From: Candidatus Omnitrophota bacterium
GTDB taxonomy: Bacteria > Omnitrophota > Gorgyraeia > Gygaellales > JBFMBJ01
NCBI GenBank assembly: GCA_040755235.1
Contig: JBFMBJ010000001.1
Span: forward strand, 1 to 48,055
DNA: 48,055 nucleotides
Reading direction: 5' to 3'
Shown: piece after piece, positions 16,596 through 34,053 of the stretch
Numbering within the stretch: position 1 is the first letter of the stretch
Layout: each line of letters starts with the position of its first letter
Notes under the pieces: generated by a model
Databases searched by the model: none
The model's input: only the letters and a program-made list of their open reading frames with translations
Told to the model about the DNA's origin: nothing
Position numbers and translations under genes: made by a program

Positions 16596-16600
16596 ATTTC

Positions 16601-16707: not shown

Positions 16708-18543
16708 ATGAACAAAATAAAAGTTTTTAGTGGTTGCTTGTTTGTTTTATTGTTAAGTGTTTTTATTGGTACGGTAAATGCACAGGATACTGCAGTAAGG
16801 ACTGCGCCGGCTAATGTGCAGGAGAGAACTGCAGTCAGGACTCCTACAGCCACTTCACAAACCAGCACTGCTGTCAGGACCTCTCCGGTCACTCCGCAAG
16901 CATATACTGCTGAGAGGGATATTCCGATTAGTTCGCAAATTGAAAGCAGTATTAGAACTTTCTACGTAGATGGATTATCTGGGAGTGATACTACAGGCAA
17001 CGGTTCATCTTCTAAACCTTGGAAAACTATTAAATTTGCTGTAAACAAACTTGCGCCAGGTGATGTGCTTTCTATTATGGGAGGTATATACAAAGAGCGC
17101 ATAACTATTACAAAAAGTGGGAGCGATACGGGTCGGATTACTATTGGTGCTTTCGGCAATGGAGAAGTTATTATTGATTGCTCTCCGAAGATCGGAGAAT
17201 GGACGCCATACACCGAAACTACAATCAAAGGAATTTATAAAGCAACCTGTTCCTTTAAGCCCACTGCTGTAGTTGTGAACGAACAGCCAATTTTTCCTGC
17301 CTTTTCTCTCACTGATATTAAAGAAAATGAATGGTATTACAATGCCACTTTAAAGATTATTTATCTTTATCCCAAAGCAGGGATTATACCTACGAATTCC
17401 AATGTCGGCGTGATTTCTGATGACCAGTATAGCGACGGGATACTTATTAATAATGCTCATTACATCACTCTTTATGGCCTGACAGTTCGATATGCAGGAG
17501 GAAGAGGAATATCTATTTTAGGAAATTACACTGAAATCAGGAGATGTAATGTGAAATTTAACGGCCATACCGGTATAAACATTTTTGCTTACGGAACTAC
17601 AAGATCTACTGACACTATTGTAGCAGACAATAATATCTATCACAATTTTTTAAGGAACTGGCCGCGCGGACGTTATAAATGGGGCGGTTGGGGAGGCGGC
17701 GCAATTAGTCACGGAACGCCTAAAACACAATATATTAATAATGTTTCACATAAAAATGGTGGAGAGGGACTGCTTGCCTATCGCGGAAGCGCTGGTGGGA
17801 CTGTTTGGAAAAATAACATTGTCTATGATAACTGGAGCGTTAATATTTACATAGATAATCAACCAAATGGCCTAATCGATGGAAATATAATTTTTAGCAG
17901 CGAGCCGGACACACACGATTTGTACCATAATGGTGATACAAATCCAGGAGATAATAGTAATTTAAAACGACTAAGGCCCCAGGGAATTATGACCGCCGAT
18001 GAAAAATACGGCGTAACTCCAACCGCAACTTTAAATAATGTGCGCATTATCAATAATACTATTGTTAATTGCCGAAAGGGTATTGACCACTATGCAAGCG
18101 CGCCTGGGTCTGGTTTGAAAAATGTTTATGTAGGTAATAACACTATAGTCGTTCCCAACGCTACCTCAATTGGAGAACCTTTTAGTGGGTTAAAAGTACC
18201 TTACAATAGTGGTAATAACCTGAACGTGGTTTTTGAGAATAATCGCATATACGCCACCAATGCAAGCGCATATCTGCTATATCTGGGAACTGATCCGAAA
18301 GTTACAACAGTATCTGCCATGACTCTTAAGGATTTAACTTTTAAGGGCAACACTTGGTATCACGCAACGCGGCCAAAGGCTTTTCACGTTGGTCCGACTT
18401 ACCATACAACTTATGATTTTGATTTTAATGGTTGGCACAATATTTGTAAAACTAACTGCATAGCCGATGTGTATAAAAATATCGCTACGCTGATTCAGCC
18501 GATATTAGACAGGATAGCATCAATTAAAGCAACTTATAAATAG
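16708..18543 (+). CDS. Secreted right-handed parallel beta-helix protein (pectate-lyase fold; polysaccharide lyase/hydrolase-like)
   Basis: Signal peptide LLLSVFIGTVNA, TAVRT-type low-complexity repeats, then beta-helix turns (RCNVKFNGHTGINIF, DNNIYHN, NNIVYDNWSVNIYIDN, NNTIVNC). Confidence 0.7.
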   Translation: MNKIKVFSGCLFVLLLSVFIGTVNAQDTAVRTAPANVQERTAVRTPTATSQTSTAVRTSPVTPQAYTAERDIPISSQIESSIRTFYVDGLSGSDTTGNGSSSKPWKTIKFAVNKLAPGDVLSIMGGIYKERITITKSGSDTGRITIGAFGNGEVIIDCSPKIGEWTPYTETTIKGIYKATCSFKPTAVVVNEQPIFPAFSLTDIKENEWYYNATLKIIYLYPKAGIIPTNSNVGVISDDQYSDGILINNAHYITLYGLTVRYAGGRGISILGNYTEIRRCNVKFNGHTGINIFAYGTTRSTDTIVADNNIYHNFLRNWPRGRYKWGGWGGGAISHGTPKTQYINNVSHKNGGEGLLAYRGSAGGTVWKNNIVYDNWSVNIYIDNQPNGLIDGNIIFSSEPDTHDLYHNGDTNPGDNSNLKRLRPQGIMTADEKYGVTPTATLNNVRIINNTIVNCRKGIDHYASAPGSGLKNVYVGNNTIVVPNATSIGEPFSGLKVPYNSGNNLNVVFENNRIYATNASAYLLYLGTDPKVTTVSAMTLKDLTFKGNTWYHATRPKAFHVGPTYHTTYDFDFNGWHNICKTNCIADVYKNIATLIQPILDRIASIKATYK

Positions 18544-18578
18544 GGCGTCACAGCCGCCTGTCGTGTACTACTTCACAA

Positions 18579-18636
18579 TTATGGCAACGTTTTTAGGTTA
18601 CGGTTAGGATGCCAGTTTCGTGGTTGGGTTACGTCT
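18579..18636. repeat. Inverted copy of flank B
   Basis: ttatggcaacgtttttaggttacggttaggatgccagtttcgtggttgggttacgtct is the reverse complement of 14983-15040 at 54/58 positions. Confidence 0.9.
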
Positions 18637-18715
18637 TTCGTATTGAGAAAAATTATTCTAACTGCATTAATTTCAAGAATGTTGATTGCTTTTAAGCTTT
18701 ATATTTTTTCACGTA
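18637..18715 (-). pseudogene. Decayed remnant of a four-helix-bundle gene (about 20 N-terminal codons with a stop, the rest deleted)
   Basis: The minus strand reads gtgaaaaaatataaagcttaaaagcaatcaacattcttgaaattaatgcag. This aligns with the 5' end of 14589 (atggaaaataaaaaacgaataacaagttttaaagatttagaagtataccag). It sits between the inverted copies of flanks A and B. Confidence 0.55.
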
Positions 18716-18763
18716 GCCGTTACCTTAAACCGATACCGGCTTCGTTACCCTTGCCGTTACCGA
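18716..18763. repeat. Inverted copy of flank A
   Basis: gccgttaccttaaaccgataccggcttcgttacccttgccgttaccga is the reverse complement of 14535-14581, with a few mismatches and a 1-nt indel. Confidence 0.85.
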
Positions 18764-18891
18764 AATACTGAAGAACTACACTTCGGCAGGCAAGTTCCGC
18801 CCTTGATTGCAGAGATTAATAAAAACAGATTACTACGATTAAAACTAGAGAATGTAATCTCTGGAATCTTATGAAAAATCACTGTAATCAT

Positions 18892-19596
18892 ATGTTAAAA
18901 ATCTTAATGTATCATTCTGTCGGTTCGCTGAACTTAAGCGAAGTCGGCACAGAGCTTTATTCTGTCTCTGAAGAGAACTTCCGTCAGCAAATGAATTTTT
19001 TGCGCAATGCGCACGACGCAATACACAATACGCTAATAACCTTCGATGACGGCCTCCTCGACAACTACACAACTGCTTTTCCGATTCTTAAGGAGTTTGA
19101 CATTAAAGCATATTTTTTTATTCTAACTTCTAAGGTCAGGGAAGAGGGGTACATGAATTGGGAACAGATTAAGGAGTTGCATAATGCAGGCATGACAATT
19201 GGTTCACACGGGATGACGCACAGACTTTTAACTGAATTAAGCGAGAATGAATTATATTATGAATTATCCCAGTCTAAGAAAATACTTGAAGATAATTTAA
19301 GCCAACCTGTTGAGAATTTTTCAATTCCCAGAGGATTTTGTAATAAAAGAATAGAAGAAGCAGCAAAGAAAATTGGCTACAAAGCAATTTTTACTTCTAA
19401 TATCAAGGATAACAATGGGTTTAGAATCGGCAGAATCCCGGTAAAACGCGATTGGGATCTTAATCATTTTAAAAGTGTTTTGAATAATGGACTGTCTCCA
19501 AGAGAAAAAGTGGAGGAATTTGTTAAGCGTATAAGCAAGGAATTCCTCGGCGCAAGGGTTTACGATAAGATTAGGAGTAGGATTCTTAGTAGATAA
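18892..19596 (+). CDS. Polysaccharide deacetylase (NodB homology domain)
   Basis: ILMYHSV, ITFDDGLLDNY, GSHGMTH. The start was moved to ATG 18892 because the 7 upstream codons translate a repeat. Confidence 0.8.
   Translation: MLKILMYHSVGSLNLSEVGTELYSVSEENFRQQMNFLRNAHDAIHNTLITFDDGLLDNYTTAFPILKEFDIKAYFFILTSKVREEGYMNWEQIKELHNAGMTIGSHGMTHRLLTELSENELYYELSQSKKILEDNLSQPVENFSIPRGFCNKRIEEAAKKIGYKAIFTSNIKDNNGFRIGRIPVKRDWDLNHFKSVLNNGLSPREKVEEFVKRISKEFLGARVYDKIRSRILSR
19002..19033. repeat. In-frame copy of the GCGCAATRCGCACGACGCA...CAATACG dispersed repeat
   Basis: 27/32 identical to the intergenic copy at 23597-23628. It encodes RNAHDAIHNTL. The same AHDAI peptide is encoded at 11236-11256 in a GT4. 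Confidence 0.8.
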
Positions 19597-19761: not shown

Positions 19762-20022
19762 ATGACAATTACAATGACAGCAAAGAATCAAATAACCATA
19801 CCTAAGAAGATCACAAATGCTTTGGGCTTAGGGAAGGGGTCTATGTTCGAGGTAGAGGTCTCTAGAGATGGGATAGAGCTTATTCCTCTGGAGACAAAAG
19901 AAAGGCAGTTCACAGATGAGGAATACGTGAAATTAGAGACCCTTGCAGCCAAAGAAAAGGGGAAAGAAAAACATGTAACAAAAAGGTTCATCGATAATTT
20001 AAAAAAGGGAAAATCTAATTAA
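19762..20022 (+). CDS. AbrB/MazE/SpoVT-family antitoxin
   Basis: MTAKNQITIPKKITNALGLGKGSMFEVEV (swapped-hairpin motif). It overlaps the downstream gene by 1 nt (TAATG). Confidence 0.75.
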   Translation: MTITMTAKNQITIPKKITNALGLGKGSMFEVEVSRDGIELIPLETKERQFTDEEYVKLETLAAKEKGKEKHVTKRFIDNLKKGKSN

Positions 20023-20330
20023 TGTCTTTACGCCTTTATTACAGGCCTTCTTTTAAAAGAAGCATCAAGCGTTTAGGATATGAACAGAAGAAAACAGTAG
20101 GACTGATAATTGAATCTTTAGCTGTTTATTATTCTCGTGAGTGTAATCTGCTAGAGGCACAAAAGATAGCACCACGATTTTTTTATAAACAACTAAGAAA
20201 GCCCTATTATGAAGCCGGTATCGAAGGAACCATCCGAGTGATTATAAGACGAGAGGGTGAAAATTGTATTGTAGTATTAGCCGGGAATCATGACCAAATA
20301 AAACAATTTCTGGCCAGCGTACAGTGTTGA
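20022..20330 (+). CDS. Putative type II toxin (RelE/ParE-like small basic protein)
   Basis: Size, position after the AbrB antitoxin and translational coupling support the call. YRPSFKRSIKRLGYEQKKTVGLIIESL resembles RelE/ParE N-termini. The family assignment is tentative. Confidence 0.5.
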   Translation: MSLRLYYRPSFKRSIKRLGYEQKKTVGLIIESLAVYYSRECNLLEAQKIAPRFFYKQLRKPYYEAGIEGTIRVIIRREGENCIVVLAGNHDQIKQFLASVQC

Positions 20331-21760: not shown

Positions 21761-21794
21761 TTGACAAAATAATCCCTTATGGTAATTTATTACC
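21761..21794 (+). promoter_or_regulatory. Possible sigma-70 promoter with an overlapping palindrome upstream of the MNT/HEPN pair
   Basis: TTGACA (21761-21766), 16-nt spacer, TAATTT. GGTAAT-TT-ATTACC palindrome at 21781-21794. Confidence 0.35.
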
Positions 21795-21811
21795 ATAAAC
21801 ATGGTGAAAAC

Positions 21812-22357
21812 ATGATATCTTTACGTTCAAAAGTGGCAATAAAATTACTGGATTATTATTTCCTTAATCCTGATGCTAAACATTATATCAATGAATTGGC
21901 GAGGACTTTAGACCTTGATCCTAAAAATACCGAAACTAAGCTTAAGGAATTCGAAAAAAAAGGCATTTTTAAAAGTGAATTCCGCGGTAAAGAAAGGTAT
22001 TTTTTCTTAGCAAAGGATAGCCCCGTTTTAGAGCATTACCGCCAGATTTTCCTGAAGACTTATGGTATAGAGAAGAGGCTTAAAGATACGCTACGAGGTA
22101 TTAAGGGACTTAAGGAGGCATATCTATTTGGCTCATACGCAACCAATAAGATGGATTTTTCAAGCGATATTGATATCTTGGCCATCGGTTCGCACTCTGT
22201 TTTGGAATTACAGAGGATGATTGTTAAGTTACAGAAGGATACAGACAGAGAAGTCAATGTAATGAATTTAAGCCTCAAGGAATTTGAGGTAAAGAAAAAA
22301 AAGAAAGACCCTTTTATAACCAATGTCTTTAAAACCAAGACTATAAGGATCGTATGA
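21812..22357 (+). CDS. Nucleotidyltransferase (MNT-type) with an N-terminal winged-helix domain
   Basis: HYINELARTL... wHTH-like N-terminus. AYLFGSYATNKMDFSSDIDILAIG is the G[SG]-x(n)-DxD NTase motif. The start was moved to ATG 21812. Confidence 0.75.
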   Translation: MISLRSKVAIKLLDYYFLNPDAKHYINELARTLDLDPKNTETKLKEFEKKGIFKSEFRGKERYFFLAKDSPVLEHYRQIFLKTYGIEKRLKDTLRGIKGLKEAYLFGSYATNKMDFSSDIDILAIGSHSVLELQRMIVKLQKDTDREVNVMNLSLKEFEVKKKKKDPFITNVFKTKTIRIV

Positions 22358-22751
22358 TTAATTTTGAAAGTCAATACTTTCAAAAATTGGCATTTCATTT
22401 AAAGAAAAACAAATTGAACAATTCTTAAAGTCTGCCTTACATGACATTAAGATTGCCGAAACATCTGATATTCCGGATGTTATTTTTAAATTCAGTTATG
22501 ATGCTTTGTTAAAATTAGGCATTGCGTTAATTGCAAAGAAGGGTTATAGAGTGAGAAGCGCAACAGGCCATCATATTAAGATATTAGAGAAACTTAGTCA
22601 GATACTTAAAGAAGAAGATATTATTGTTCTTGGCAATAAGATGCGTCAGGAACGCAATATTAATCTTTATGATGGCGGCTTTGTAGTAGGGGAAAAAGAC
22701 ATCCGGGAGTATCTAATTTTTGTAAAAAGTATTTTCAAAAAAGGTAATTGA
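22354..22751 (+). CDS. HEPN-domain protein, reading frame broken near the 5' end (-1 shift at an A5 run)
   Basis: ATG 22354 overlaps the MNT stop (ATGA) and reads MINFESQYFQK. The HEPN-like sequence IGISFKEKQIEQFLKSALHDIKIAE...GHHIKILEKL continues in the -1 frame from 22386. That frame has no ATG/GTG/TTG before 22506. Confidence 0.55.
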
Positions 22752-22753
22752 AA

Positions 22754-23566
22754 ATGAATAAAGCTAACATTGGTAAATTAGTAGCATTAGCTGGATTAAC
22801 TGCGCTTGCCTACATTCCTACCTTTGCCTGGATGATTGGCAGATGGACTGCCAAAGATACATATTACAGCCATGGTTTTTTAGTGCCATTAATTAGTATT
22901 TTTTTAATTTGGCAAAAGAGGCAAGATTTAAAGAAACTAAAGATTAAGCCTTCTAATCTTGGCTGGGTATTTTTTGGCTCTGGTATATTAATTCATGCGA
23001 TAAGCGCGTTATGGAGAGTGTATTTCTCGTCGGGATTTTCTTTAATTATAGTTCTAATCGGGCTGGTTTTATTATTTTTAGGCAAGGAATTTTTAAAAGA
23101 AACTTTATTCGCAATACTTTTCTTCGCCTTTATGATTCCTTTACCTCTGGTTGCTATTGCCAACATAAGTTTTAAACTAAAAATTTTTGCCGCTAAAATT
23201 TCAACCGTTATCATTAATAAATTAGGCGTTCCGGCAATAAGAGACGGCAGTGTGATAAAAACAATGCATTCTTATTTGGTAGTAGAGGACCCTTGCTCTG
23301 GGATAAGAAGCTTAATTGCTCTTATTGCCCTGGGTGCATTGATGGCATATTTTAGTAACATTTCCAAGCTTAAAAAGACAATTCTTTTTATATCCTCAAT
23401 TCCTATCGCAATCGCAACAAACGTAATCAGGATAGTTACTTTGTCGTTAGTAAGTGAAATGTATGGAGCGAAATTAGCAACCGGTACATTTCATAATATA
23501 ATGGGTGTTTTGGTTTTTGTCTTTGCATTTATTGGTCTGGCCTTGATAGCCAAGATCCTGGAGTAG
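22754..23566 (+). CDS. Exosortase (EpsH/Xrt family transpeptidase)
   Basis: YYSHGFLVPLISIFLIW, catalytic-Cys motif EDPCSGIRSL, NVIRIVTL, and multiple TM helices. Confidence 0.9.
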   Translation: MNKANIGKLVALAGLTALAYIPTFAWMIGRWTAKDTYYSHGFLVPLISIFLIWQKRQDLKKLKIKPSNLGWVFFGSGILIHAISALWRVYFSSGFSLIIVLIGLVLLFLGKEFLKETLFAILFFAFMIPLPLVAIANISFKLKIFAAKISTVIINKLGVPAIRDGSVIKTMHSYLVVEDPCSGIRSLIALIALGALMAYFSNISKLKKTILFISSIPIAIATNVIRIVTLSLVSEMYGAKLATGTFHNIMGVLVFVFAFIGLALIAKILE

Positions 23567-23643: not shown

Positions 23644-24267
23644 ATGAACCAGAAATCTTTTATTTTTGTAATCATAATTCTGATTGTCGTCGGAATTATG
23701 AGTCTAGCTTCATACTTGCCGACGAGGACCGATGCTGCCTTGAAAGTTAAGGTAGAGAATTTCCCCAAAGAAATCGGCGAATGGAAAGGTGTAGATATTC
23801 CTGTTTCCGAACAGGATTACGCAATTTTGGAAACCAGAAATCTTTTTGTGAGGAATTACAAAGACAAAAAGGACGAGTCAGTATATTTATACGTAATTTA
23901 TTCTGAAGATAACCGTAAAGTAAGCCATCCACCGGAAATCTGCCTTTTAGGTAGTGGAATGACCATAGTTAATAAATCCACGGTTAGAATATCAAATCTT
24001 GTAAAGGCAATTAAATTAATTGTTGAAAAAAAATATGTGCAGGAGATGGTTGTCTATTGGTTTAAAGCAGGCAATCTTTATACTGAGAATTATCTTAAGC
24101 AGCAACTCAAAATTGTTACTGACCGCATGTTGAGAAAGAGGACCTCAGGTGCTCTTATCAGAATTTCTACAGTGATGAAAGAGAATGAGCGAGAGGAGAC
24201 TTCTTTAGAATTGATTAAAAGGTTTGCCGCCCAAATCCAACCGCTGCTGCCCGAATACGTTCCCTAA
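23644..24267 (+). CDS. EpsI-family exosortase-associated protein
   Basis: N-terminal anchor, FPKEIGEWKGVDIPVSEQDYAILE...VYLYVIYSEDNRKVSHPPEICLLGSGM. It lies directly after the exosortase gene. Confidence 0.8.
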   Translation: MNQKSFIFVIIILIVVGIMSLASYLPTRTDAALKVKVENFPKEIGEWKGVDIPVSEQDYAILETRNLFVRNYKDKKDESVYLYVIYSEDNRKVSHPPEICLLGSGMTIVNKSTVRISNLVKAIKLIVEKKYVQEMVVYWFKAGNLYTENYLKQQLKIVTDRMLRKRTSGALIRISTVMKENEREETSLELIKRFAAQIQPLLPEYVP

Positions 24268-24541
24268 TCCCTCCTAACATTAACTCGTAAACTTAATCCA
24301 AAAGTGTTGAAAAAGATAGAATTTGTATTTAAATTTGTCAATTCTTTAACTCATTAATTATCAATAGGTTACACAAAAAATAGCAAACTCTTAACTTTAG
24401 TGTTGCTTTTAGTGAACAAATAAATATGTAATAAAAAAATTTTTTGCTGGCAAAATTTATTGTCTTATTTATCTTTGTTATAACCACTTCAAATTAAATA
24501 AGTTAAAAAACATAAAAAAAGTTTTTATTTTATTCTGAAAT

Positions 24542-24557
24542 TGGCATAAAAAATGCT
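24542..24557 (+). promoter_or_regulatory. Candidate sigma-54 (-24/-12) promoter
   Basis: TGGCAT-aaaaa-ATGCT has the canonical GG-N10-GC spacing (consensus TGGCAC-N5-TTGCW). It lies at the end of a 300-nt AT-rich gap. rpoN and a GAFTGA-containing EBP are encoded in the same locus. Confidence 0.5.
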
Positions 24558-24571
24558 TATATATTATTGTA

Positions 24572-25450
24572 ATGAAATATTCTTATACCAAACTCCCCAA
24601 CTTATTCAGAAAAACAATAGTATTTTTACTATTTGTTGTAACCTTTTTATTAGTAGGGCCTTCCTTAAGAGATAGCTTAACCTACGCTGTTACTTATTTT
24701 GATAATCCTAAAATTTCTTCAGAGCATTTAGAACTTCCTTATCTCTCTGAACCCATCAGCCCGGCGCCTCCTGTTCGTCAAAAATCACACGCTCCGGAAC
24801 CCAGTAGTTTATTTTTAATATTGGGTGGAATGGGCACAATGATTGTCCGATTTGCCCAAAAGAGTTTTCAGAAATTTAAAAGGGCTTTTGACGTTATTTT
24901 ATCCCTTGTTGGCTTAACTATTGCCTCGCCTGTAATTTTGTTGTCTGCGTTTTTAATTAGAGCAAATTCAAAAGGCCCTATAATTTATAAGCAGAATAGG
25001 GTGGGTAGGAATGGCAAAATTTTCAAAATTTATAAACTGAGAACAATGAGATTAGATGCGGAAAAAGACACTGGCGCAGTTTGGGCAAAAAAAGATGACC
25101 CGCGTGTAACTTCTGTCGGCAGGATTTTAAGGCAACTTCATATTGATGAAATTCCACAGTTATTAAATGTATTGAAAGGCGAGATGAGTATCGTTGGACC
25201 GCGTCCGGAGCGGCCAGAATTAGTTAGGGATTTAAAAGTGCTTATCCGCGATTATGAAAAACGTCTTTTGATAAAACCAGGCATTACTGGTCTGGCTCAA
25301 GTTTGGCATAAGTACGATGAAACAATTGACGATGTAAAAAAGAAAATTAAATACGACATTTTATATCTCAAAAAAATGTGCTGGCTAGTTGATTTGCGCA
25401 TCCTTATGCAAACCGTTGTGGTAGTACTTACTGGCAGAGGGGCAAGATAA
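24572..25450 (+). CDS. Polyprenyl-phosphate sugar phosphotransferase (bacterial sugar transferase, PglC/WbaP C-terminal type) with an unusual ~90-aa N-terminal extension
   Basis: KRAFDVILSLVGL...SPVILLSAFLIRANSKGPIIYKQNRVGRNGKIFKIYKLRTM...IDEIPQLLNVLKGEMSIVGPRPERPE. The extension carries a TM segment and APEPSSLFLILGGMGTMIVRF. An alternative start exists at the MIVRF ATG. Confidence 0.85.
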   Translation: MKYSYTKLPNLFRKTIVFLLFVVTFLLVGPSLRDSLTYAVTYFDNPKISSEHLELPYLSEPISPAPPVRQKSHAPEPSSLFLILGGMGTMIVRFAQKSFQKFKRAFDVILSLVGLTIASPVILLSAFLIRANSKGPIIYKQNRVGRNGKIFKIYKLRTMRLDAEKDTGAVWAKKDDPRVTSVGRILRQLHIDEIPQLLNVLKGEMSIVGPRPERPELVRDLKVLIRDYEKRLLIKPGITGLAQVWHKYDETIDDVKKKIKYDILYLKKMCWLVDLRILMQTVVVVLTGRGAR

Positions 25451-26061
25451 TGAGAAAAATAATTGTGTTAGGGATAATAAGTTTAATAATTAGTTTATAT
25501 GGTGTAAATCTTTCATATGCCGTGCCGCCGCCATCTTCCTTTTTGGATTTTATTAACTTGTCAGGCAGCTATTTACAATTGCAAGATGGGACATATCTTT
25601 ATTCTTATACTTTGAGTGCAGGTGCTGCTTATGGAACGCCAGGTTCAGGTTTGAGCCATTGGTGGCTTGAACTTTTAGAAGAAAAAATCCCTACCCTAAG
25701 TAATTTTAATCCTGATGATCCTAATTCCACTGATGACGTGGAGACATATTTTAATGAAAATCACGGGCCTTCTGGCTTATTTACTACTTTAGGCAATCCC
25801 TTTAATGGCTTTCATTATGGAGCGAAATGGGATTATGAAGATTTAATTACTTATTCTTTTATAAGTACTCATGGTCCGGTGTTAGATGAATATGGAAATG
25901 TAGATTTTGGGGCGTATTCTTGGATGGCTAAAGGTGGTCAATATTACGATTTTGGCACAACCTTAGGACCAAACGGGATAATCCCTGAACCGGCAACAAT
26001 GTCACTTCTAGGATTAGGATTAATTGGCTTACTCCGGCTTAAAAAGAAGAAAAATAGATGA
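25450..26061 (+). CDS. PEP-CTERM sorting-domain protein
   Basis: Signal peptide, then C-terminal IPEPATMSLLGLGLIGLLRLKKKKNR. Confidence 0.9.
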   Translation: MRKIIVLGIISLIISLYGVNLSYAVPPPSSFLDFINLSGSYLQLQDGTYLYSYTLSAGAAYGTPGSGLSHWWLELLEEKIPTLSNFNPDDPNSTDDVETYFNENHGPSGLFTTLGNPFNGFHYGAKWDYEDLITYSFISTHGPVLDEYGNVDFGAYSWMAKGGQYYDFGTTLGPNGIIPEPATMSLLGLGLIGLLRLKKKKNR

Positions 26062-26783
26062 AAAAGATTTTCTTTTTATATCTTATTGTTTTATTTTTAT
26101 CATTTTCCCAGCCAGCATTTGCCTATTTTATTGGTAACGAAATAACTACCTTAAATGGCATATATGGTTCATCTTGGGATGGTTCGAGCAATGAATTATG
26201 GGATGTCTTATCTGCAAACGGTTACACTGCTTTAGCGAATGATGTCCAAACCGATGTCTCAGGGGGGACGCCGTCTTCAAATTATCACGTTTACAAGAAT
26301 ACCTATTGGAAATCTGCCGGCTATTATTCTTTAATGGTTGATGAGGTTGCTGCCTATTCTCCTTATAGCAGTTTTGGTTGGTATATAAAAAATCATTCTG
26401 GTGACGTAGGCGATCTCAGCAAAACTACCTGGGGTGAGATTTTTTCAGGAGCAAATTCACAAGGCGCTACATTTGGTTTTTTTAATCCGAACGAAATAGG
26501 TTTTTGGATTAATCCTAACGGAGCTTCGGGCCTTTATTATTTTACTGATACTTCTCTTAATGGAGGAGATTTACAAGCCCTGGTGTTTTCTTTAAATGGA
26601 TATGGTGGTTTTGGTGATGACTACTTAATTGCTTTGGAAGACTTAAAATTTTCCGGATGGACGGACAATGATTTTCAAGATATGATTATCCGGCTTCGTC
26701 CAATTATTCCTGAGCCTGGCACAATGTCACTTTTGGGGTTAGGTTTGTTAGGAGTATTTGGTTTTAGAAAGAAGAGAAGTTAA
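26058..26783 (+). CDS. PEP-CTERM sorting-domain protein with a DUF4114-like segment
   Basis: Signal peptide ending in AFA. DNDFQDMIIRL motif. C-terminal IPEPGTMSLLGLGLLGVFGFRKKRS. Confidence 0.9.
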   Translation: MKKIFFLYLIVLFLSFSQPAFAYFIGNEITTLNGIYGSSWDGSSNELWDVLSANGYTALANDVQTDVSGGTPSSNYHVYKNTYWKSAGYYSLMVDEVAAYSPYSSFGWYIKNHSGDVGDLSKTTWGEIFSGANSQGATFGFFNPNEIGFWINPNGASGLYYFTDTSLNGGDLQALVFSLNGYGGFGDDYLIALEDLKFSGWTDNDFQDMIIRLRPIIPEPGTMSLLGLGLLGVFGFRKKRS

Positions 26784-26815
26784 TAAAATCTAAATAAGGG
26801 AGGTGAAAAAAATAA

Positions 26816-27391
26816 ATGAAAACCGTAAAAATATTGACGGTAGTTTTTGGTATGCTGCTCATGTTTGGTACGTTAGCCAATGCAGGTATCGTAGATGTTA
26901 TAGAGTATCCAACGGGTTATTTTGCTCCGGGTGCTACTACTTCTTCGCCGTATTATCGCTGGTGGGATGAAGATTGGGGTTGGGCTCATAATCCAATCGC
27001 AGGCTCGATAACAACTGCAGAGCTAAGTATCAGCGCCTATGATGTTGATGCTCCCAGTGAAGTTGATAATATCTATGCCTGGGAAAATGGTGGCTGGACG
27101 CTATTAGGCAACCTTGCTGGCTTGAATAATGATTGGGGATATACAACCTTTAATCTTGGTTCTGAATTCTTTGATGAAATTGCAGCAGGTCTTCAGGTTT
27201 ATATGGACATAGACACAACTCATACTTATAACTATTGGGCAGTGACTCTTGCAAAATCAGCACTTTCAATTAACGGTGGAACAATACCTCCTCCGTGTCC
27301 GGGTTGTGGAGTTATTCCTGAGCCAGCAACAATGTCATTGTTAGGTTTTGGTGTTTTGGGTTTGTTTGGTTTAAGAAGGAAGAGAAGTTAG
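26816..27391 (+). CDS. PEP-CTERM sorting-domain protein
   Basis: SD gggaggtg. Signal peptide ...TLANA. C-terminal IPEPATMSLLGFGVLGLFGLRRKRS. Confidence 0.9.
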   Translation: MKTVKILTVVFGMLLMFGTLANAGIVDVIEYPTGYFAPGATTSSPYYRWWDEDWGWAHNPIAGSITTAELSISAYDVDAPSEVDNIYAWENGGWTLLGNLAGLNNDWGYTTFNLGSEFFDEIAAGLQVYMDIDTTHTYNYWAVTLAKSALSINGGTIPPPCPGCGVIPEPATMSLLGFGVLGLFGLRRKRS

Positions 27392-27396
27392 TTGAA

Positions 27397-27435
27397 CACG
27401 AATTCTCACGAATTACACACTAATTTTCACGAATT
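27397..27435. repeat. CACGAATT x3 intergenic motif array
   Basis: cacgaatt at 27397, 27407 and 27428 (spacings of 10 and 21 nt). Confidence 0.8.
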
Positions 27436-27487
27436 ATCAGCGAGTTTAAAAAGCCACGGAGATTTCAAAAGAAGGAGGTGAAAAAGA

Positions 27488-28141
27488 ATGAAGAAAGGTC
27501 TAATATGTTTAGCAATACTCCTGGGCGTTGGTATGTTTCTATCTATGCAAACAACAGCATCAGCTTGGATAGAAATAACTGATCCTCTGCTAATAGGAGG
27601 AATAGTTTATGCTCCTGGTTCTAATCTACCAGGTGAACCATTGACAACAGTGGTTGTTGCTCCTACTGGCTCGGTTACAATCGGTTCCTTTGCTCTGGAA
27701 GGAGATTCTCAGCCTATAGGTTGGAAAGGAATTGGAGTGCCACTTGCTCCATTAGGTTATGCCCCTGGTTATCAGTTCGCATTTGATGATAGTTTCCTTA
27801 CTTGGGATTCCAGTTACTACGATGAATTTTACGGAGTCCTTACTCAGGGAGACTACATCTGGAACGGCGGTTTAGTGTTGGGTGGTTTTACTTTTGGCGG
27901 TCTCACTGAAGGTGGATTGGAGGGTATAAATAATCCTTGGCAGATGCAGGGCAGTTTTTTGGTTGACCCTAACTATGATTATTTCTTGAATATAGTTCTT
28001 CGCACGTCATATGATGAACAACTACCTTCTTGGGGACTATTCAGCGATGTGTCAGTTCAGGTCATCCCTGAGCCGGCAACATTGTCATTGTTAGGATTTG
28101 GCGTTTTGGGATTATTTGGCTTAAGGAGGAAAAAATCCTAG
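27488..28141 (+). CDS. PEP-CTERM sorting-domain protein
   Basis: SD aaggaggtg. Signal peptide ...TTASA. C-terminal IPEPATLSLLGFGVLGLFGLRRKKS. Confidence 0.9.
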   Translation: MKKGLICLAILLGVGMFLSMQTTASAWIEITDPLLIGGIVYAPGSNLPGEPLTTVVVAPTGSVTIGSFALEGDSQPIGWKGIGVPLAPLGYAPGYQFAFDDSFLTWDSSYYDEFYGVLTQGDYIWNGGLVLGGFTFGGLTEGGLEGINNPWQMQGSFLVDPNYDYFLNIVLRTSYDEQLPSWGLFSDVSVQVIPEPATLSLLGFGVLGLFGLRRKKS

Positions 28142-28263: not shown

Positions 28264-28566
28264 ATGATAACTAAGAAAGTTTTATCTATCTGCGTTATTG
28301 GCTTAGTTACCTTTGCCTTAACTGGCTGTTTAGGCGGAGGCGGTGGCGGCGGTTCGTCATCAGGCGGGTCCTCATCCGGGATTAGTTCTTCATCTTTTGT
28401 AAGCAGCTCTGCTCCGAGCGTAAGCGCTCCTGAACCAGGCAGCTCAGCTCCCGAAACGCCTTCAACAGTAGTTGCTGTGCATAATCCCGAACCAAGCAGC
28501 ATTCTACTATTGGGTAGTGGTTTACTCGGATTGGCTTTAGCAAGACGCAGAAAGCATAAAAAATAG
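28264..28566 (+). CDS. Small Gly/Ser-rich protein with both a lipobox and a PEP-CTERM domain
   Basis: LVTFALTGC lipobox, GGGGGGGSSSGGSSSG tract, and C-terminal NPEPSSILLLGSGLLGLALARRRKHKK. Confidence 0.8.
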   Translation: MITKKVLSICVIGLVTFALTGCLGGGGGGGSSSGGSSSGISSSSFVSSSAPSVSAPEPGSSAPETPSTVVAVHNPEPSSILLLGSGLLGLALARRRKHKK

Positions 28567-28707: not shown

Positions 28708-29586
28708 ATGGCGTCACAAGAGACATCCTTTCCAGTTGTAAAAAAAGTCTACCGAGATAGTTTTCTTTTTCTTAAGAATACCCCCATCTTTTTTTATCCC
28801 TACCTTATTTTAATCTTTTTAGAAGTTTTTAGTTTGCTTGTTTTATTCTTAATTCCGAGAGCACCCCTGAACACAATTCTTGGGCCAATAATAAGAGTTA
28901 AATGGGGAGAGCGGTTTTTACATTATCCTTTTAATTTCCTTTTATTGCCTAAATTGGCTTCTTACACAAGGATGGTTCTGACAGTTGTATTCGGTTCTTT
29001 GCTAACCGGTATAGCTGTATCTATAGCTACCGATGGCTTCAATAATAAAAAACCAAAATTAGGACGGTCTTTTATAGTTTCTGTGAAAAAATATATCTTT
29101 ATTTTTATTGTTATTTCTTTAATTAATTTTGCCTGGTTTTTTATAGGTAAGTTTATCCCTAATTCTTTAACGAAATATTTCATTGCTGGCCATACTCGTC
29201 TCTTATTTATAAATTATAAATTGTGGCAGGGTCCGATAGTTGCAGGTATAAATTTCTTGTTTGCTATTATTATTCAGTCACTTTTTATTTACATCATACC
29301 AGTTTTTATTATTGAAAATAAAAAGTTCTTTCCTTCCATTATCAGCGCATTAAGATTCTTTGCTCTTCACCTTAAAACCACCTTAACCTTTGTATTATTG
29401 CCGATGTTAACTTATATCGTGATCATTGTTCTAAATTATAACAATCTATTTTTGATGGAAAAGTTTTTCCCCGAAATTATTTTATTAGTTATATTGCTTA
29501 GTACCTTGCTCATTAATTTGGTCATAGATCCGTTAATTACGGCCTCAACAACACTGTTTTATTTGAATAGGAGAGAGGGCAAATAG
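28708..29586 (+). CDS. Polytopic membrane protein of unknown function
   Basis: About 6-7 hydrophobic helices and no recognisable motif. It is the first gene after the consensus promoter. Confidence 0.5.
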   Translation: MASQETSFPVVKKVYRDSFLFLKNTPIFFYPYLILIFLEVFSLLVLFLIPRAPLNTILGPIIRVKWGERFLHYPFNFLLLPKLASYTRMVLTVVFGSLLTGIAVSIATDGFNNKKPKLGRSFIVSVKKYIFIFIVISLINFAWFFIGKFIPNSLTKYFIAGHTRLLFINYKLWQGPIVAGINFLFAIIIQSLFIYIIPVFIIENKKFFPSIISALRFFALHLKTTLTFVLLPMLTYIVIIVLNYNNLFLMEKFFPEIILLVILLSTLLINLVIDPLITASTTLFYLNRREGK

Positions 29587-29588: not shown

Positions 29589-30431
29589 ATGAAAAGTTTT
29601 ACCTACCTAATCACCCTCATTCTTACCTGTGTTTTTCTCGCTGGTTGCGGTAATGACCAATATTCCATCGAAAAGCAATATTATTGGGCACAAAAAAGGG
29701 CCGCAAAAATTTTTAAGAATCCGGCTGCCTCACCGCCACGAGAGCTGGAAAAGGTGGTAGGAATCTTAAATAATTTCATCCGAAACTATCCGAAAAATAA
29801 GTTAGCGCTTCAGGCAGAATTTGATATTGCCCGGCTTTATATAACCAAGGAAGAATATGATAAAGCAAGGCTACAACTGCGCTCGATAGTCAATAAATAC
29901 AATGAACTTAAGGATATTTGCGCTGAAGCAACATTTTTAATTGGCAATTCCTATCAGATAGAGGACAAATGGAACCTTGCTTTAGAGCAATATAAAAAGA
30001 TTATGCAAGATTATCCGGCAACCTTAAGGGGTTTGGATATCCCCGTTTATATTGCCCAGTATTACAAAATTAAATATCAGCCGGATAAAATGCTGGCTGC
30101 TTTCTATGAGGCAATAAACCATTATAAGGGCTTGGCTCTTAAGTATCCTAAGTCAGTGCTTGCTTATCAGGCAGAGATGTTAGTGTCTAGTTGTTATGCA
30201 GCGCTTAAGGATTGGAATAATGTAATAAATAGTCTCAATACAGTGATAGAAAATTATAAGGATAAGATTAAGGCGGACGGAATTTTAATGCAGATAGCTT
30301 TTATCTACTCTAAAGAGCTTAAAGATAAAGCTAAAGAAAAGGAAATTTTAGAACGCTTAATCAGGGATTATCCGAAGAGTAAGCTGGTTAAACGAGCGAC
30401 GGTTTTATTAGAGGAGCTGGAAAAGAGATGA
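29589..30431 (+). CDS. TPR-repeat lipoprotein (BamD/YfiO-like; short PrsT-like)
   Basis: Lipobox VFLAGC. Repeated A..Y/L..A TPR-like helices (ALQAEFDIARLYITKEEYDKARLQL, AEATFLIGNSYQIEDKWNLALEQYKKIM). Confidence 0.6.
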   Translation: MKSFTYLITLILTCVFLAGCGNDQYSIEKQYYWAQKRAAKIFKNPAASPPRELEKVVGILNNFIRNYPKNKLALQAEFDIARLYITKEEYDKARLQLRSIVNKYNELKDICAEATFLIGNSYQIEDKWNLALEQYKKIMQDYPATLRGLDIPVYIAQYYKIKYQPDKMLAAFYEAINHYKGLALKYPKSVLAYQAEMLVSSCYAALKDWNNVINSLNTVIENYKDKIKADGILMQIAFIYSKELKDKAKEKEILERLIRDYPKSKLVKRATVLLEELEKR

Positions 30432-31630
30432 GCGAGATAAAATTTACGAAAGAAGAAACAAATAATTTTTTAAAGAACTTTTTGAATACCGCGCTCAGGG
30501 AAATGATGTCTGTTTTAGGCGCCGGCTGTGGTTCTTTGTTTTTGTTTGATTCTGATAGCAGCGAATTAGTTTTAGACTCATTTTTTAATTCAGAGAACAT
30601 TAATTTAGCAGGGTTAAAATATAGGATAGGAGAGGGGATTTCCGGCAAAGTCGTAGACATAAAAAAACCGATTTTAGTCAGGGATATCAATAAAGACTTA
30701 CGCTTCCAGAGGAATGGTTTTGCTCACTATAAGACAAATTCTTTTATTTCTATACCGCTTTTTAACTCTGAAGGCCTCTTAGGCCTAATAAATTTAGCAG
30801 ATAAGTCAAACGGTGAGCCATTTTCCGAACAAGACTTAACTTGTGCTGTTTCAATAGCTAAATATGCCTGTTTAGTTGTGGATAATTTTAAGAGCCAGAG
30901 CCAGCTTAAACAAGAAAAAGAAAATTTTGATAAACAAAAAAATATATTGGAGACATACGCTTCCGCTGGCAAACTTGCGGCCGGCTTAGCACACGAGATA
31001 AACAATCCTTTAGACGGCATTATCCGCTATGTAAATATATTGCTCAATCAGATAGATGATAACTCTACCAGCCGGGAATACCTTTTAGAAGTGAAGAGCG
31101 GACTGGGGAGGATTGCGAATATAATAAAGTCACTCTTGGAATTTTCCTCTCAGATTAATTCAAATACTAAATCTGCTAGAAAATATGTAGATTTAGATGT
31201 AATGATTGATGATGCTATAGAGACATTGAGAGATAGGTGTAAAGACAACATAAAAATTAAAAAATATTATAAAAGGGATTTAGCGCCTATTTTAGATTTA
31301 GGTTTGCAGCACGTAATTATCAATTTAGTAAAAAATGCAATAGATGCAATGGCAAACGGTGGGACATTAGAAATTACAACTGATATTAATGATTCTGATG
31401 TGAAGATTATCTTCAAAGATACCGGCGTAGGTATTTGCGAAGATACAGCCAAGAAAATATTTGAACCGTTTTTTACAACCAAGAGCGCTGACAAAGGCAC
31501 CGGCTTAGGCCTTTCAATATGCCGAGAGATTGTTTACAAATACTCAGGGAGAATTGATTTGCATAGTTTGCCGGGAAAAGGTTCTACCTTTACCATCATT
31601 GTTCCTAAGGCACACCTAAAGAATGAATAA
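30428..31630 (+). CDS. Cytoplasmic GAF-domain sensor histidine kinase
   Basis: GAF-like N-terminus, H-box [10 protein letters not shown]-box [10 protein letters not shown]-boxes DTGVGI and GTGLGLS. Confidence 0.85.
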
Positions 31631-33038
31631 TACAAGTTCTAACCGAAGGCATATTTTAGTTGTTGATGACGAGCCTCTGGTAAGGAGGTCTCTAAGTGAA
31701 TTCCTTACATTGGAGGGCTATGCTGTAAGTAATGCCAGCAATGCCAAGGAAGCACTCAACTTATTAAAAGACTATACCGCTGATATTATTATTACTGATA
31801 TAAAGATGCCTGAAATGGATGGCATTAATTTATTAAAAAACATGAAAGAGCTTTACCCACAGACGCCGGTTATAGTTATAACTGGTTACGGTAGCATAGA
31901 AAGCGCTGTAGAAGCAATGAAACAAGGTGCTTATGACTATATAACCAAACCAATCGTGGACTCTGAAATAAAGATTATAATTGAGCGTCTTATCAAAGAG
32001 AACCAAATTGTAGAAGAGAATATCAGACTTAAAGAGCAGCTTTCTTCGACGAAAAAAGAGCGTTTTCTAAATATTGTGGGCCGTGATGAAAAGATGCAAA
32101 AGATTTATAATCTGATTGAGGCAATATCCAATACTCGGGCCACTGTTCTTATTCATGGTGAAAGCGGAACAGGAAAGCGTCTGGTCGCCCATGCAATACA
32201 TAAATTTAATCCCGAGGAAGCGGAAAAGCCGTTTGTAGAAGTAAGTTGCGGTGCATTAACCGAGACATTATTGGAAAGTGAGTTATTTGGCCATGTAAAA
32301 GGCGCTTTTACAGGCGCGATAAAAGAAAAAAAAGGCCGTTTTGAATTAGCAGATACCGGCACCATATTTTTAGATGAAATCGATGCCTTTTCACCAGCGC
32401 TGCAGGTAAAATTGCTGAGAGTGCTTCAGGAGGGCGAATTCGAGCGTGTAGGAGACAATAAAACTGTTAAAGTGGATGTACGGGTAATTTCTGCCACCAA
32501 TCAAAATTTAGAAAACTTGATTAGCCAGGGTAAATTCAGAAAAGATTTATATTATCGGCTTAATATCATTTCCATAGAACTTCCGCCGCTACGAGAGCGA
32601 AAGACGGATATCCCCTTATTAGTTGATGATTTTATAGAAAAACATTTAAAACACACTAGTAAAAAGATTGAAGGCTTATCAGCTGACGCCATTGATACGC
32701 TGATTAATTATAATTGGCCGGGTAATGTCAGAGAATTAGAGAATGTCATTGAACGAGCAATAATTTTAGCCAAGAAGCCAATAATAACCTTGGAAGATTT
32801 TCCTGATTTTTTGCGCTCGTTAGATAAGAATAAATTAAAAGAAAACGAAGTTTTGATTCCTGGCAACGGCTCTAAATTAAAACAGGCGTTAAGGTCTCCT
32901 GAGAGAGATTTAATTTTAAAAGCGCTTCATTCTTCAGATGGGAATAAGAATAAGGCAGCTGAAATCTTAGGTATAAACCGCACCACTCTTTATAAAAAGA
33001 TGCGTAGTTACGGCTTGCTAAAGAATAATAAGCAATAA
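31623..33038 (+). CDS. Sigma-54-dependent response regulator (NtrC family; PrsR-like)
   Basis: REC domain (VVDDEP...TDIKMPEMDG), AAA+ Walker A GESGTGK, GAFTGA sigma-54 contact loop, and C-terminal Fis-type HTH (AAEILGINRTTLYKKM). Confidence 0.9.
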   Translation: MNNTSSNRRHILVVDDEPLVRRSLSEFLTLEGYAVSNASNAKEALNLLKDYTADIIITDIKMPEMDGINLLKNMKELYPQTPVIVITGYGSIESAVEAMKQGAYDYITKPIVDSEIKIIIERLIKENQIVEENIRLKEQLSSTKKERFLNIVGRDEKMQKIYNLIEAISNTRATVLIHGESGTGKRLVAHAIHKFNPEEAEKPFVEVSCGALTETLLESELFGHVKGAFTGAIKEKKGRFELADTGTIFLDEIDAFSPALQVKLLRVLQEGEFERVGDNKTVKVDVRVISATNQNLENLISQGKFRKDLYYRLNIISIELPPLRERKTDIPLLVDDFIEKHLKHTSKKIEGLSADAIDTLINYNWPGNVRELENVIERAIILAKKPIITLEDFPDFLRSLDKNKLKENEVLIPGNGSKLKQALRSPERDLILKALHSSDGNKNKAAEILGINRTTLYKKMRSYGLLKNNKQ

Positions 33039-33039
33039 A

Positions 33040-34053
33040 ATGCAAAATAATCCTAAGCCACGGAAGTCAGTGCCGGCTTTAAAAGATTTAATTAACGTTG
33101 AGGCCTGGCAGGATATTCAGGATAACTTTTCTTTAGTAACCGGAATTGATATTCGATTAATAGACTCAAAAGGCAATCCTCTTATCCGCCGTAGTAATCA
33201 TTCCTCCGCATTATGTTCTGATTATTCCCCAATAGCACAAACAGTAAAAGAGAAGGTCTGTGTAGATTGCCTGCCTACGTTCTTAGGAGGCAACGGCGTA
33301 GTAGACCGTAATTTGAGTTTTTCCTGTATTCCTGGTTTAGACAATTTTATCGTTCCTTTAAGCATAGAGAATGAGGTGCTTGGCTATATCCTAATGGGGC
33401 CTGTTATTTTAGTTATGCGCAAGACCAAAGAACAATATTCTCAGATTGCGGAATCACTAAATGTTGATTTAGAAGAACTCTGGAGTGCTATTTTAGAGTT
33501 AAAAGTGATTTCTTTTCATGGCGCGCAATCAATGCTGGAATTGGTTAAAGATGTAGGTGAATACATTGTAAATTTGGCTTATAGAGATTACATGAAAGAA
33601 GAAGGGGTTAGTTTTAAGCTTAGCACCGTAAAATTACATAAGATATTAGAACTATTGTTAGATGTGGCATTTGAAATAACCGGCGCAGATATTGGCTCAG
33701 TGATGTTAGTTGATAAAAAATCTGATGAACTTTCTATAAAAGCTAGCCGAGGAATTTCAGATGATATCGTTGCGAGGACCCGGGTTAAGCTGGGTAGCAG
33801 GATTTCCGGTTTAGCAGCAAGGGAAGGGGAGGCATTTTTAATCGATAAAGCCTTAAAAGATAACCGAATTAGTCGCTATCTTGAGAGGCCGTCTTTAAAT
33901 TCTTCGATGGTCGTTCCGCTTAAATTAAAAGACACAGTAGTGGGAGTTATGAATTTGGCAATTCTTTCTACCTCACCTAACAAGTTCAGCCAGGACGGCT
34001 TAGAATTGATGCGTAAACTTGCGGACTTGGCAACTGTAGCAATTCCCACCTAA
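33040..34053 (+). CDS. PocR-type sensory domain plus GAF domain protein (no output domain)
   Basis: WQDIQDNFSLVTGIDIRLIDSKGNPL is PocR-like. The C-terminal part is GAF-like (ADIGSVMLVD...SIKASRGI...MVVPLKLKDTVVGVMNL). Confidence 0.6.
   Translation: MQNNPKPRKSVPALKDLINVEAWQDIQDNFSLVTGIDIRLIDSKGNPLIRRSNHSSALCSDYSPIAQTVKEKVCVDCLPTFLGGNGVVDRNLSFSCIPGLDNFIVPLSIENEVLGYILMGPVILVMRKTKEQYSQIAESLNVDLEELWSAILELKVISFHGAQSMLELVKDVGEYIVNLAYRDYMKEEGVSFKLSTVKLHKILELLLDVAFEITGADIGSVMLVDKKSDELSIKASRGISDDIVARTRVKLGSRISGLAAREGEAFLIDKALKDNRISRYLERPSLNSSMVVPLKLKDTVVGVMNLAILSTSPNKFSQDGLELMRKLADLATVAIPT

Follow-up and report, generated by a model that had tools for sequence, protein, structure and literature searches.

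A PEP-CTERM-type sorting module ahead of the catalytic domain of a priming sugar transferase in Omnitrophota

Why should an enzyme that starts glycan synthesis carry what looks like an exosortase sorting signal, and carry it ahead of its catalytic domain? The gene that raises this question lies at 24572-25450 on the forward strand of the window, by which we mean the whole stretch of DNA analysed (48,055 nucleotides; contig JBFMBJ010000001.1 of the Candidatus Omnitrophota bacterium assembly GCA_040755235.1). Its translation, together with domain and ortholog matches, identifies the product as a PEP-box-bearing monotopic phosphoglycosyl transferase of 292 amino acids (aa). The association of exosortases with exopolysaccharide synthesis has been, since 2006, one of gene neighbourhood; where PEP-CTERM proteins are cut, what accepts them and what becomes of them have largely been inferred (PMC1569441; bioRxiv 10.64898/2025.12.21.693542). 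Comparison with orthologous sequences establishes that this enzyme carries a complete PEP-CTERM-type module, which is translated, under selection, in fixed register with the enzyme and confined to an exosortase-linked clade. We incline, with somewhat more belief than doubt, to the view that the enzyme is an exosortase client, its module being recognised and most likely cut at the PEP motif, so that glycan initiation would be coupled to sorting.

A sorting module in fixed register with a complete PglC-type enzyme

The Bac_transf domain (PF02397) covers residues 103-286 with 220.9 bits against a cutoff of 27 (E=1.2e-65), and the solved PglC structures 8e37 and 8g1n align with residues 102-290 from PglC residue 10 onward (E ~1e-33). 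Because the PglC alignment starts there, everything before residue 102 is an extension to a complete PglC-type unit. That unit occupies residues 103-292 (24878-25447, forward strand, as are the parts of the extension, the promoter and the exosortase, EpsI, substrate and companion genes below), as judged from PF02397, the PglC alignment and the invariant columns; it opens with KRAFDV and contains a re-entrant helix with S119-P120, a D192-E193 dyad and P210-R211-P212. K103, R104, P120, D192, E193 and P210-R211-P212 are invariant across 72 orthologs and are matched in PglC 8e37. Hallmarks of PglC are a re-entrant helix that Lys-Arg opens and Ser-Pro breaks, a catalytic Asp-Glu dyad and a PRP motif.

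The extension begins with a basic N-terminal tail (four Lys/Arg) and a hydrophobic segment, a signal-anchor or the h-region of a signal peptide, at residues 1-31 (24572-24664), on the evidence of hydropathy, an AlphaFold2 (AF2) model and alignment with the closest ortholog (locus L006). The 17-residue hydrophobic segment itself, IVFLLFVVTFLLVGPSL, is found at residues 16-32, and hydropathy peaks at 2.81 over residues 16-30. After it comes a net-acidic loop of 47 residues with eight Pro, four Lys/Arg and six Asp/Glu. Column conservation picks out a motif behind the hydrophobic segment, LRDSLTYAVTYFDNPK (residues 32-47, 24665-24712), in which F38 is kept in 65 and A39 in 69 of 71 orthologs. By the -3/-1 rule A39 would fit the -1 position of signal peptidase I (T/S-F-A followed by V-T-Y-F-D), and this putative T-F-A/V site falls 11 residues past the hydrophobic segment in the window protein. 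Residues past the putative cut are conserved as well, reading [TS]FA[VI]TYFD in the first and AWAT[LV]SF[VI]K in the second of the two subfamilies of orthologs. Next is a variable, Pro-containing and presumably periplasmic linker (residues 48-69, 24713-24778), recognised by the lowest conservation and by a low predicted local distance difference test (pLDDT) in the AF2 model, in which residues 39-60 score below 50; its length differs between lineages.

The sorting module follows in three parts. The PEP box, QKSHAPEPS, spans residues 70-78 (24779-24805) and is defined by conservation and by matches to TIGR02595 and PF07589 that begin at residue 74; within it HAPEPSS takes up residues 73-79, and the codons of P75-E76-P77 lie at 24794-24802. 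Conservation and the AF2 model place a Gly-rich transmembrane helix (TM2), SLFLILGGMGTMIV, at residues 79-92 (24806-24847), and the uninterrupted run of hydrophobic or small residues after PEP amounts to 15 (residues 78-92, SSLFLILGGMGTMIV), with a hydropathy peak of 1.6. Charge count, conservation and the ratio of non-synonymous to synonymous substitution rates (dN/dS) then mark out a cytoplasmic basic cluster, RFAQKSFQKFKR, at residues 93-104 (24848-24883), having five Lys/Arg and no Asp/Glu, more spread out than the usual RRRK and continuing into the KR of the re-entrant helix. The basic cluster is followed by 188 residues, the whole enzyme, and the PEP module is thus not C-terminal.

Modelled on the 72 orthologs (mean pLDDT 78.5), the protein has a helix at residues 10-33, disorder at 34-76 and a further helix from residue 77. 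Charges are distributed as four Lys/Arg inside, a net-acidic loop outside and five Lys/Arg inside, which supports a self-consistent, positive-inside topology that places PEP outside and the basic cluster, like the enzyme, inside; signal peptide and topology were judged here from the hydropathy profile, from charge counts, by the -3/-1 rule and from AF2 secondary structure. The preliminary description of this DNA had listed a signal-anchor, a Pro-rich segment, PEP, a Gly-rich helix, a basic cluster and a PglC domain, and all of these are where it had placed them; its claim of a self-consistent topology is borne out by the charge distribution and by the start of the AF2 helix after PEP.

In bits per column of the 72-ortholog alignment, the PEP box reaches 3.44, TM2 3.05, the basic segment 3.58 and the catalytic domain 3.55, the linker being the lowest of all segments at 1.48. 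Among the box residues A74 and P75 are each kept in 71 of 72 orthologs, E76 in all 72 and P77 in 62, and the A-P-E core is as invariant as in true substrates; further along, G86 and F99 are invariant, as are K103 and R104, and R93 is invariant or nearly so. Over residues 70-104 the window and L006, which are 91% identical, differ by 10 synonymous changes and one non-synonymous change (dN/dS 0.015), and the corresponding ratio for the catalytic domain is 0.048. By these sequence measures, purifying selection constrains the PEP module no less than the active site. The preliminary description had allowed that the motif might never be made; the substitution pattern in the upstream segment indicates that it is translated and strongly selected.

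The module is also recognised by existing family models. With the 104-residue extension of the window protein as sole query, TIGR02595 reaches 18.0 bits (cutoff 16), although it is unlisted for the full protein at E<=0.01, and it scores 18-22 bits in nine of ten diverse members; PF07589 matches 63 of 69 orthologous extensions at E<=0.1, the best at E 2.3e-6. Every one of the 240 orthologs listed, from both subfamilies, has the box, with exactly 25 residues from the motif to KRxxD. Length and frame are kept throughout these 240, and a gene-call or frameshift artefact is thereby ruled out. The same description had remarked on a resemblance to the C-terminus of a neighbouring substrate, and this is confirmed: of the five substrate tails encoded downstream, that of the gene at 28264-28566, NPEPSSILLLGSGLLGLALARRRKHKK, is closest to the enzyme box, with 9 of 27 positions identical compared with 6-8 for the others. 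Immediately before PEP the enzyme has K-S-[HR]-A and the large substrates have [VI]-[IV].

A full-length search returned at least 120 orthologs of 267-316 aa, with 59-91% identity and 87-100% query coverage, and a second large subfamily, recognised from divergent matches to a profile of the extension, provided at least 120 more; in both, those with a named source are Omnitrophota. The second subfamily has the box [KR][AST]RAPEP[STAG]T..LFG[SG]G and canonical signal peptides ending T-A-W-A, followed by T-L-S-F-V-K. In the divergent members P0146, P0150 and P0134 only ~9-14 residues separate the apparent signal-peptide site from PEP. Source names for these proteins are "sugar transferase" or something equally generic, while automated Pfam annotation lists PF07589 with PF02397 for some, and for about a quarter of the second subfamily this precomputed architecture is already on record. 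When a profile of the extension alone was run against 1.84 billion representative proteins it gave 34 matches in all, nearly all of which, where long enough to judge, run on into the transferase, the short ones being truncated copies; the exceptions are two proteins that diverge right after the basic cluster and one stand-alone PEP-CTERM protein of 105 aa. A 5-mer word-index search with the extension alone gave no match, which is a limit of such an index on a short and variable query and does not indicate absence. Scanning a genome collection with a consensus peptide yielded 80 loci, of which five have the extension (Omnitrophota metagenome-assembled genomes (MAGs) and one MAG labelled Planctomycetales) and the rest are generic transferases matching the KGPVIYKQ pattern; because these swamped the scan, the taxonomic range is a lower bound. 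The box is absent from the other transferases inspected, from Streptococcus, Paenibacillus, Desulfovibrio, Butyrivibrio, Flavipsychrobacter, Terracidiphilus and a Vampirovibrionales MAG, whose loci were not screened for exosortase.

The stand-alone protein (P0144, L090:271-588) matches the extension profile at E=8.7e-5. Encoded on a 1.3-kb contig, it consists of a signal peptide, a short linker and TKAPEPATMILVVAGLGGLLILRKKFKK, and may be a relic of the unfused form. An origin of the enzyme by fusion with a small PEP-CTERM gene, as the preliminary description had suggested, is plausible.

The genes that surround the transferase tie the module to an exosortase. The exosortase gene (22748-23566, 272 aa) lies 1 kb upstream; it is recognised by TIGR02602 (166.2 bits, cutoff 105.55), the TIGR04178 signature (67 bits, cutoff 23) and PF09721, and its score against the XrtA model TIGR03109, 188.1 bits, is under the cutoff of 208. 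Next comes an exosortase partner of the EpsI family (23644-24267, 207 aa; TIGR02914, 111 bits against a cutoff of 42.8, and PF11984). Four PEP-CTERM substrate genes follow the transferase across 25450-28141 (25450-26061, 26058-26783, 26816-27391 and 27488-28141), their tails reading [IV]IPEP[AG]T[ML]SLLG.... This order, a GT2 glycosyltransferase, an exosortase of ~270 aa, an EpsI of ~206 aa, the boxed transferase and one to five PEP-CTERM genes, is shared by nine loci besides the window (L001/L002, L003/L004, L005, L007, L009, L010, L011, L012 and L014), and in L008 EpsI stands at the contig edge. The order is kept in all loci with enough flanking sequence except the short contig L013; motif and exosortase are genetically tied.

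What the module may do, and whether it is made here

Our proposal is that the neighbouring exosortase would recognise the PEP module of the enzyme as it does its substrates, in which case the priming enzyme would be an exosortase client. Having bound the module, the exosortase would most likely cut at the PEP box; the cut would remove a small and dispensable N-terminal piece, leaving the helix and the enzyme in the membrane beside the exosortase. With or without cutting, lipid-linked glycan initiation would become physically and temporally coupled to protein sorting. Cleavage with release or transfer of the N-terminal piece, which the preliminary description had already envisaged, is suggested by analogy with the archaeosortase ArtA of Haloferax volcanii and its substrate HVO_0405. 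Since the piece to be removed is small, differs in length between members and shows little conservation, selection is probably on the enzyme side and not on the cargo. The most speculative step is that the glycolipid made by this enzyme may serve as acceptor for the sorting reaction. A glycolipid acceptor or prerequisite is a reasonable if speculative idea because cleavage by ArtA depends on PssA and PssD, enzymes of lipid synthesis that co-localise with it (PMC7157517). The fuller version, in which the exosortase would cut or capture the PEP box to license or position the transferase and the resulting polyprenyl-linked glycan would be the acceptor for PEP-CTERM proteins, strikes us as rather unlikely.

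Several observations weigh against a client relationship. Haft et al. judged the rare non-terminal PEP-CTERM matches to be probably non-functional, being more variable (PMC1569441). The PF07589 match in the window protein (residues 74-90, 16.9-17.7 bits) does not reach the Pfam gathering score of 20.7 bits; which codon starts translation in this genome is in doubt; and L013 has no exosortase in the 2.2 kb available upstream, while a PEP-CTERM gene and the companion pair described below do lie downstream. Further, PEA, PEL, PEF or AEP takes the place of PEP in 16 of the 120 members listed for subfamily 1, and SEP does so in three of the 120 listed for subfamily 2 (19 of 240 together), unlike the 32 neighbouring substrates, all of which retain PEP (Fisher p=0.03). 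The third motif residue does not co-vary between the enzyme and its neighbouring substrates: in L003 a PEF enzyme stands beside PEP substrates, so the motif may not need catalytic competence. Lastly, TM2 and the basic segment show a residue-by-residue conservation that ordinary PEP-CTERM tails lack, which could mean a role inside the enzyme and not in recognition by the exosortase. The relaxed third residue, the want of co-variation in L003 and the conservation of TM2 and basic segment, the last being as expected of a stable protein-protein interface, would also suit an enzyme that is docked and never cut, an uncleaved substrate mimic that holds it on the exosortase/EpsI complex or competes with substrates. 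Such docking would equally account for pre-PEP residues that differ from those of the large substrates and for a would-be cargo that is trivially small in several lineages. We take this possibility seriously while thinking it unlikely, for A74, P75 and E76 are essentially invariant, as in true substrates, no sequence feature marks the site as uncleavable and the related ArtA cleaves an internal signal ahead of a long cytoplasmic domain (PMC6098224).

Two further explanations deserve mention. The hairpin might be unrelated to exosortase, an ordinary topogenic element of a small transferase in which the PEP-like residues would cap a helix or form an interface, the link to exosortase being no more than a shared operon. 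Extra N-terminal helices are common in phosphoglycosyl transferases, hidden Markov model scores for the module are modest (17-22 bits), and conservation of TM2 could come from packing against the re-entrant helix; yet the three-part anatomy, the helix length and the Gly-richness match the PEP-CTERM definition, nine of ten members pass TIGR02595, the extension profile is confined to the exosortase-linked clade among 1.84 billion representatives, a stand-alone PEP-CTERM protein matches that same profile, and the box is missing from other transferases inspected, in loci unscreened for exosortase. We therefore regard an unrelated hairpin as improbable. More improbable still, to the point that we would be surprised by it, is that the N-terminal peptide is the product: cuts by signal peptidase and exosortase would leave ~37 residues (VTYFD...HAPEP), set free or fixed to the envelope to act as a signal or primer, and the enzyme would be only their carrier. 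It would follow the usual sorting logic, in which the N-terminal part is cargo, and both subfamilies retain a motif past the putative signal-peptidase cut ([VI]TYFD in one, T[LV]SF[VI]K in the other); against this, the linker is the least conserved segment and variable in length, several lineages have only ~9-14 residues between the apparent signal peptide and PEP, and one copy per enzyme molecule is a costly way to make a peptide. An exosortase client remains our preferred reading for the family.

Whether the extension is made at this locus is independent of that family-level reading. When the upstream region is aligned with L006, the window is found to lack 84 nucleotides (nt) at a junction near 24601/24602. 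In L006 these cover the last part of the leader, the initiation codon and the ~12 codons that open the gene (MSYKTKNRFSRA…), and because the N-terminus of L006 fits the family consensus, the window has the derived state; the deletion could also be an assembly artefact. The ATG at 24572 corresponds to leader sequence in L006, codons 1-10 come from the former 5' leader, and the ATG stands ~4 nt from the +1 of a predicted sigma-54 promoter, orthologous leaders measuring 16-130 nt. The next in-frame starts, TTG(L84), ATG(M87) and ATG(M90), are all downstream of the PEP box. In the preliminary description a competing reading had translation begin at the ATG of MIVRF, behind an SD-like (Shine-Dalgarno-like) gggtgga. 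That sequence is indeed present ahead of ATG(M90), and for the family this start is ruled out by variation at residue 90, where most orthologs have Ile or Val (of the 72 aligned, 30 have Met and another 30 have Ile), together with the 10:1 synonymous excess upstream over a box that is itself selected. At this locus it keeps some chance, because the deletion removed the ancestral start and left ATG 24572 so close to the predicted +1.

Decay confined to this locus, with translation from M87 or M90 (or TTG L84) giving a plain PglC-like enzyme, seems to us a possible but doubtful outcome. The deletion did take the end of the ancestral leader, the start codon and ~12 codons, the ATG at 24572 has no Shine-Dalgarno sequence, and a product begun at M87 or M90 would retain the entire PglC unit. 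The GGTGGA 9 nt ahead of ATG(M90) would serve such a start, yet it is explained by coding because it encodes the conserved G85 and the invariant G86, and an SD-like motif precedes only about half of the genes in the window. Moreover, the frame is open from 24572, the new N-terminal tail still has four Lys/Arg, as fits the n-region of a signal, and residues 32-104 are under purifying selection relative to L006, though the deletion is undated. Leaderless or near-leaderless AUG mRNAs can be translated in bacteria, which speaks for the start at 24572. Read-through from epsI is also possible, because no terminator was found between epsI and the transferase gene (24268-24571). The extension is likely still made here, from a near-leaderless or read-through transcript.

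Promoter, regulators and neighbouring genes

The sigma-54-type promoter, TTGGCATAAAAAATGCT, lies at 24541-24557, with its GG at 24543-24544 and its GC at 24555-24556; the usual -12 spacing, with C(-12) at 24556, predicts a +1 at ~24568. The pattern TTGGCA[TC]-N5-[AT]TGCT precedes the orthologous transferase gene in 10 of 13 loci scanned. Just upstream of the promoter (24500-24525) there is an A-rich block, AAAAAACATAAAAAAAGTTTTT, common to L006, L003 and L001, which could be a regulator or IHF site. Downstream of the substrate genes is a regulatory block (30428-35429) made up of a histidine kinase (30428-31630), a sigma-54 response regulator (31623-33038), a PocR-GAF protein (33040-34053) and, as its last gene and on the reverse strand, rpoN (34050-35429); the same block recurs in L003 and L007. 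PEP-CTERM genes depend on RpoN (PMC9850573), and the promoter and regulators here agree with this.

Following the four large substrate genes, the gene at 28264-28566 encodes a small Gly/Ser-rich PEP-CTERM protein of 100 aa with a lipobox-like LTGC. Counterparts close the substrate array in L003, L005, L007, L009 and L012; the tail follows the pattern [HV]-N-PEP-SS-[IM]LLLGSG, and the protein would be anchored at both ends before processing. The two companion genes come next, one for a 292-aa polytopic membrane protein without a family match (28708-29586) and one for a TPR/BamD/YbgF-like lipoprotein recognised by TPR and YfiO models (29589-30431). This pair recurs past the substrate genes in L003/L004, L007 and L013, and its products probably belong to this exosortase system as parts that have yet to be characterised.

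Within the polysaccharide/exosortase cluster there are two intervening toxin-antitoxin-like pairs, a MazE-like antitoxin with a 102-aa partner just upstream of the GT2 gene (19762-20330), and a nucleotidyltransferase (NTP_transf_2, weak MntA match) with an 81-aa partner just upstream of the exosortase (21779-22751). The upstream half of the window is taken up by a large polysaccharide locus (994-19596) with two type I phosphodiesterase-family proteins, a radical SAM protein, a Wzy_C protein, a beta-helix protein, a polysaccharide deacetylase, and GT2 and GT4 glycosyltransferases that include GT2-GT4 and double-GT4 fusions. Two open reading frames of 390-400 aa at 4029-5231 and 5237-6415 have no Pfam match. 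Genes of the 23S_rRNA_IVP family of four-helix bundles occur among the glycosyltransferase genes at 12996-13385 and 14589-14984 and recur at differing positions in related loci, L005 and L007 included.

Significance and comparison with known systems

A strongly selected, phylum-wide fusion of a sorting signal to the enzyme that starts a glycan amounts to "Rosetta-stone" evidence for a direct physical coupling of the two processes. With ordinary substrates the C-terminal product of cleavage is a tiny helix that is lost; were the transferase cleaved, the product would be a stable enzyme fragment of ~24.5 kDa. Such a fragment would report on the activity of the exosortase, on which of its residues are catalytic, on whether EpsI is needed and on the exact position of the scissile bond. 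HVO_0405 served as such a reporter for archaeosortase A (PMC6098224). If it is true that the glycan is the acceptor, the fusion would be the first sequence-level clue to what exosortase cargo is attached to. In practical terms, PEP-CTERM detectors that demand a C-terminal position will miss functional internal signals. We found no description of an exosortase sorting signal on a sugar or phosphoglycosyl transferase in the searchable literature, subscription-only papers being outside its scope.

The closest likeness is to the PEP-CTERM/exosortase system itself (EpsH, XrtA), with which the protein shares the PEP motif, a Gly-rich helix of ~14-15 residues (the definition of Haft et al. in 2006 has a hydrophobic stretch of 14; PMC1569441), a basic cluster and an apparent N-terminal secretion signal, as well as a place beside an exosortase, EpsI, polysaccharide genes and a sigma-54 two-component regulator. 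In ordinary substrates, however, the domain sits at the extreme C-terminus, with a median of three residues after it and fewer than 10 in 87% of cases (PMC1569441), whereas here the signal occupies residues 73-104 of 292, a 188-residue cytoplasmic enzyme follows and the part to be exported would be tiny. The third motif residue is relaxed in ~8% of members, and TM2 and the basic segment are conserved at the level of single residues. Because the defining C-terminal position is missing, we have not filed the protein as an ordinary PEP-CTERM protein; nor does it resemble the non-terminal matches of Haft et al., since the module here is, on the contrary, strongly conserved.

The closest functional precedent is archaeal. 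In HVO_0405, ArtA, a member of the same superfamily, cleaves a centrally placed PGF signal and both fragments were detected (Abdul Halim et al. 2017, as described in PMC6098224 and PMC7157517); as here, the signal lies mid-protein and a long cytoplasmic domain comes after it. That layout, by the same accounts, arose by gene fusion, a strain-specific and apparently accidental one to a NifU-domain gene, its N-terminal domain is real cargo, and the long C-terminal fragment made cleavage easy to detect. In the transferase, by contrast, the layout has been kept across two large Omnitrophota subfamilies, the downstream enzyme belongs to the same pathway, the N-terminal part is vestigial and the signal is the PEP of a bacterial exosortase, not PGF. 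ArtA with PssA and PssD offers a parallel of another sort, a sorting transpeptidase that depends on, adjoins and co-localises with the synthesis of a membrane-lipid-linked molecule (PMC7157517). There the coupling is one of gene neighbourhood and co-localisation, with no sorting signal on the enzyme, and the lipid is archaetidylethanolamine and not a polyprenyl-linked sugar.

As an enzyme, the protein is like the PglC-type monotopic phosphoglycosyl transferases (PF02397; 8e37, 8g1n) in having a complete catalytic unit that can be aligned from KR; PglC, however, begins only a few residues before the re-entrant helix, and the window protein has 100 more N-terminal residues and two membrane crossings. 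It is also like TIGR03013 (EpsB_2) and TIGR03025, the priming sugar transferases of exosortase loci, with which its C-terminal catalytic domain is homologous. It scores 258.5 bits against TIGR03013 (cutoff 393.35), matching only positions 249-443 of that 443-position profile, and 284.4 bits against TIGR03025 (cutoff 295.55); it does not belong to TIGR03013, the transferase family tied earlier to XrtA systems. Proteins of these two families are ~445 aa long and have a multi-helix N-terminal domain.

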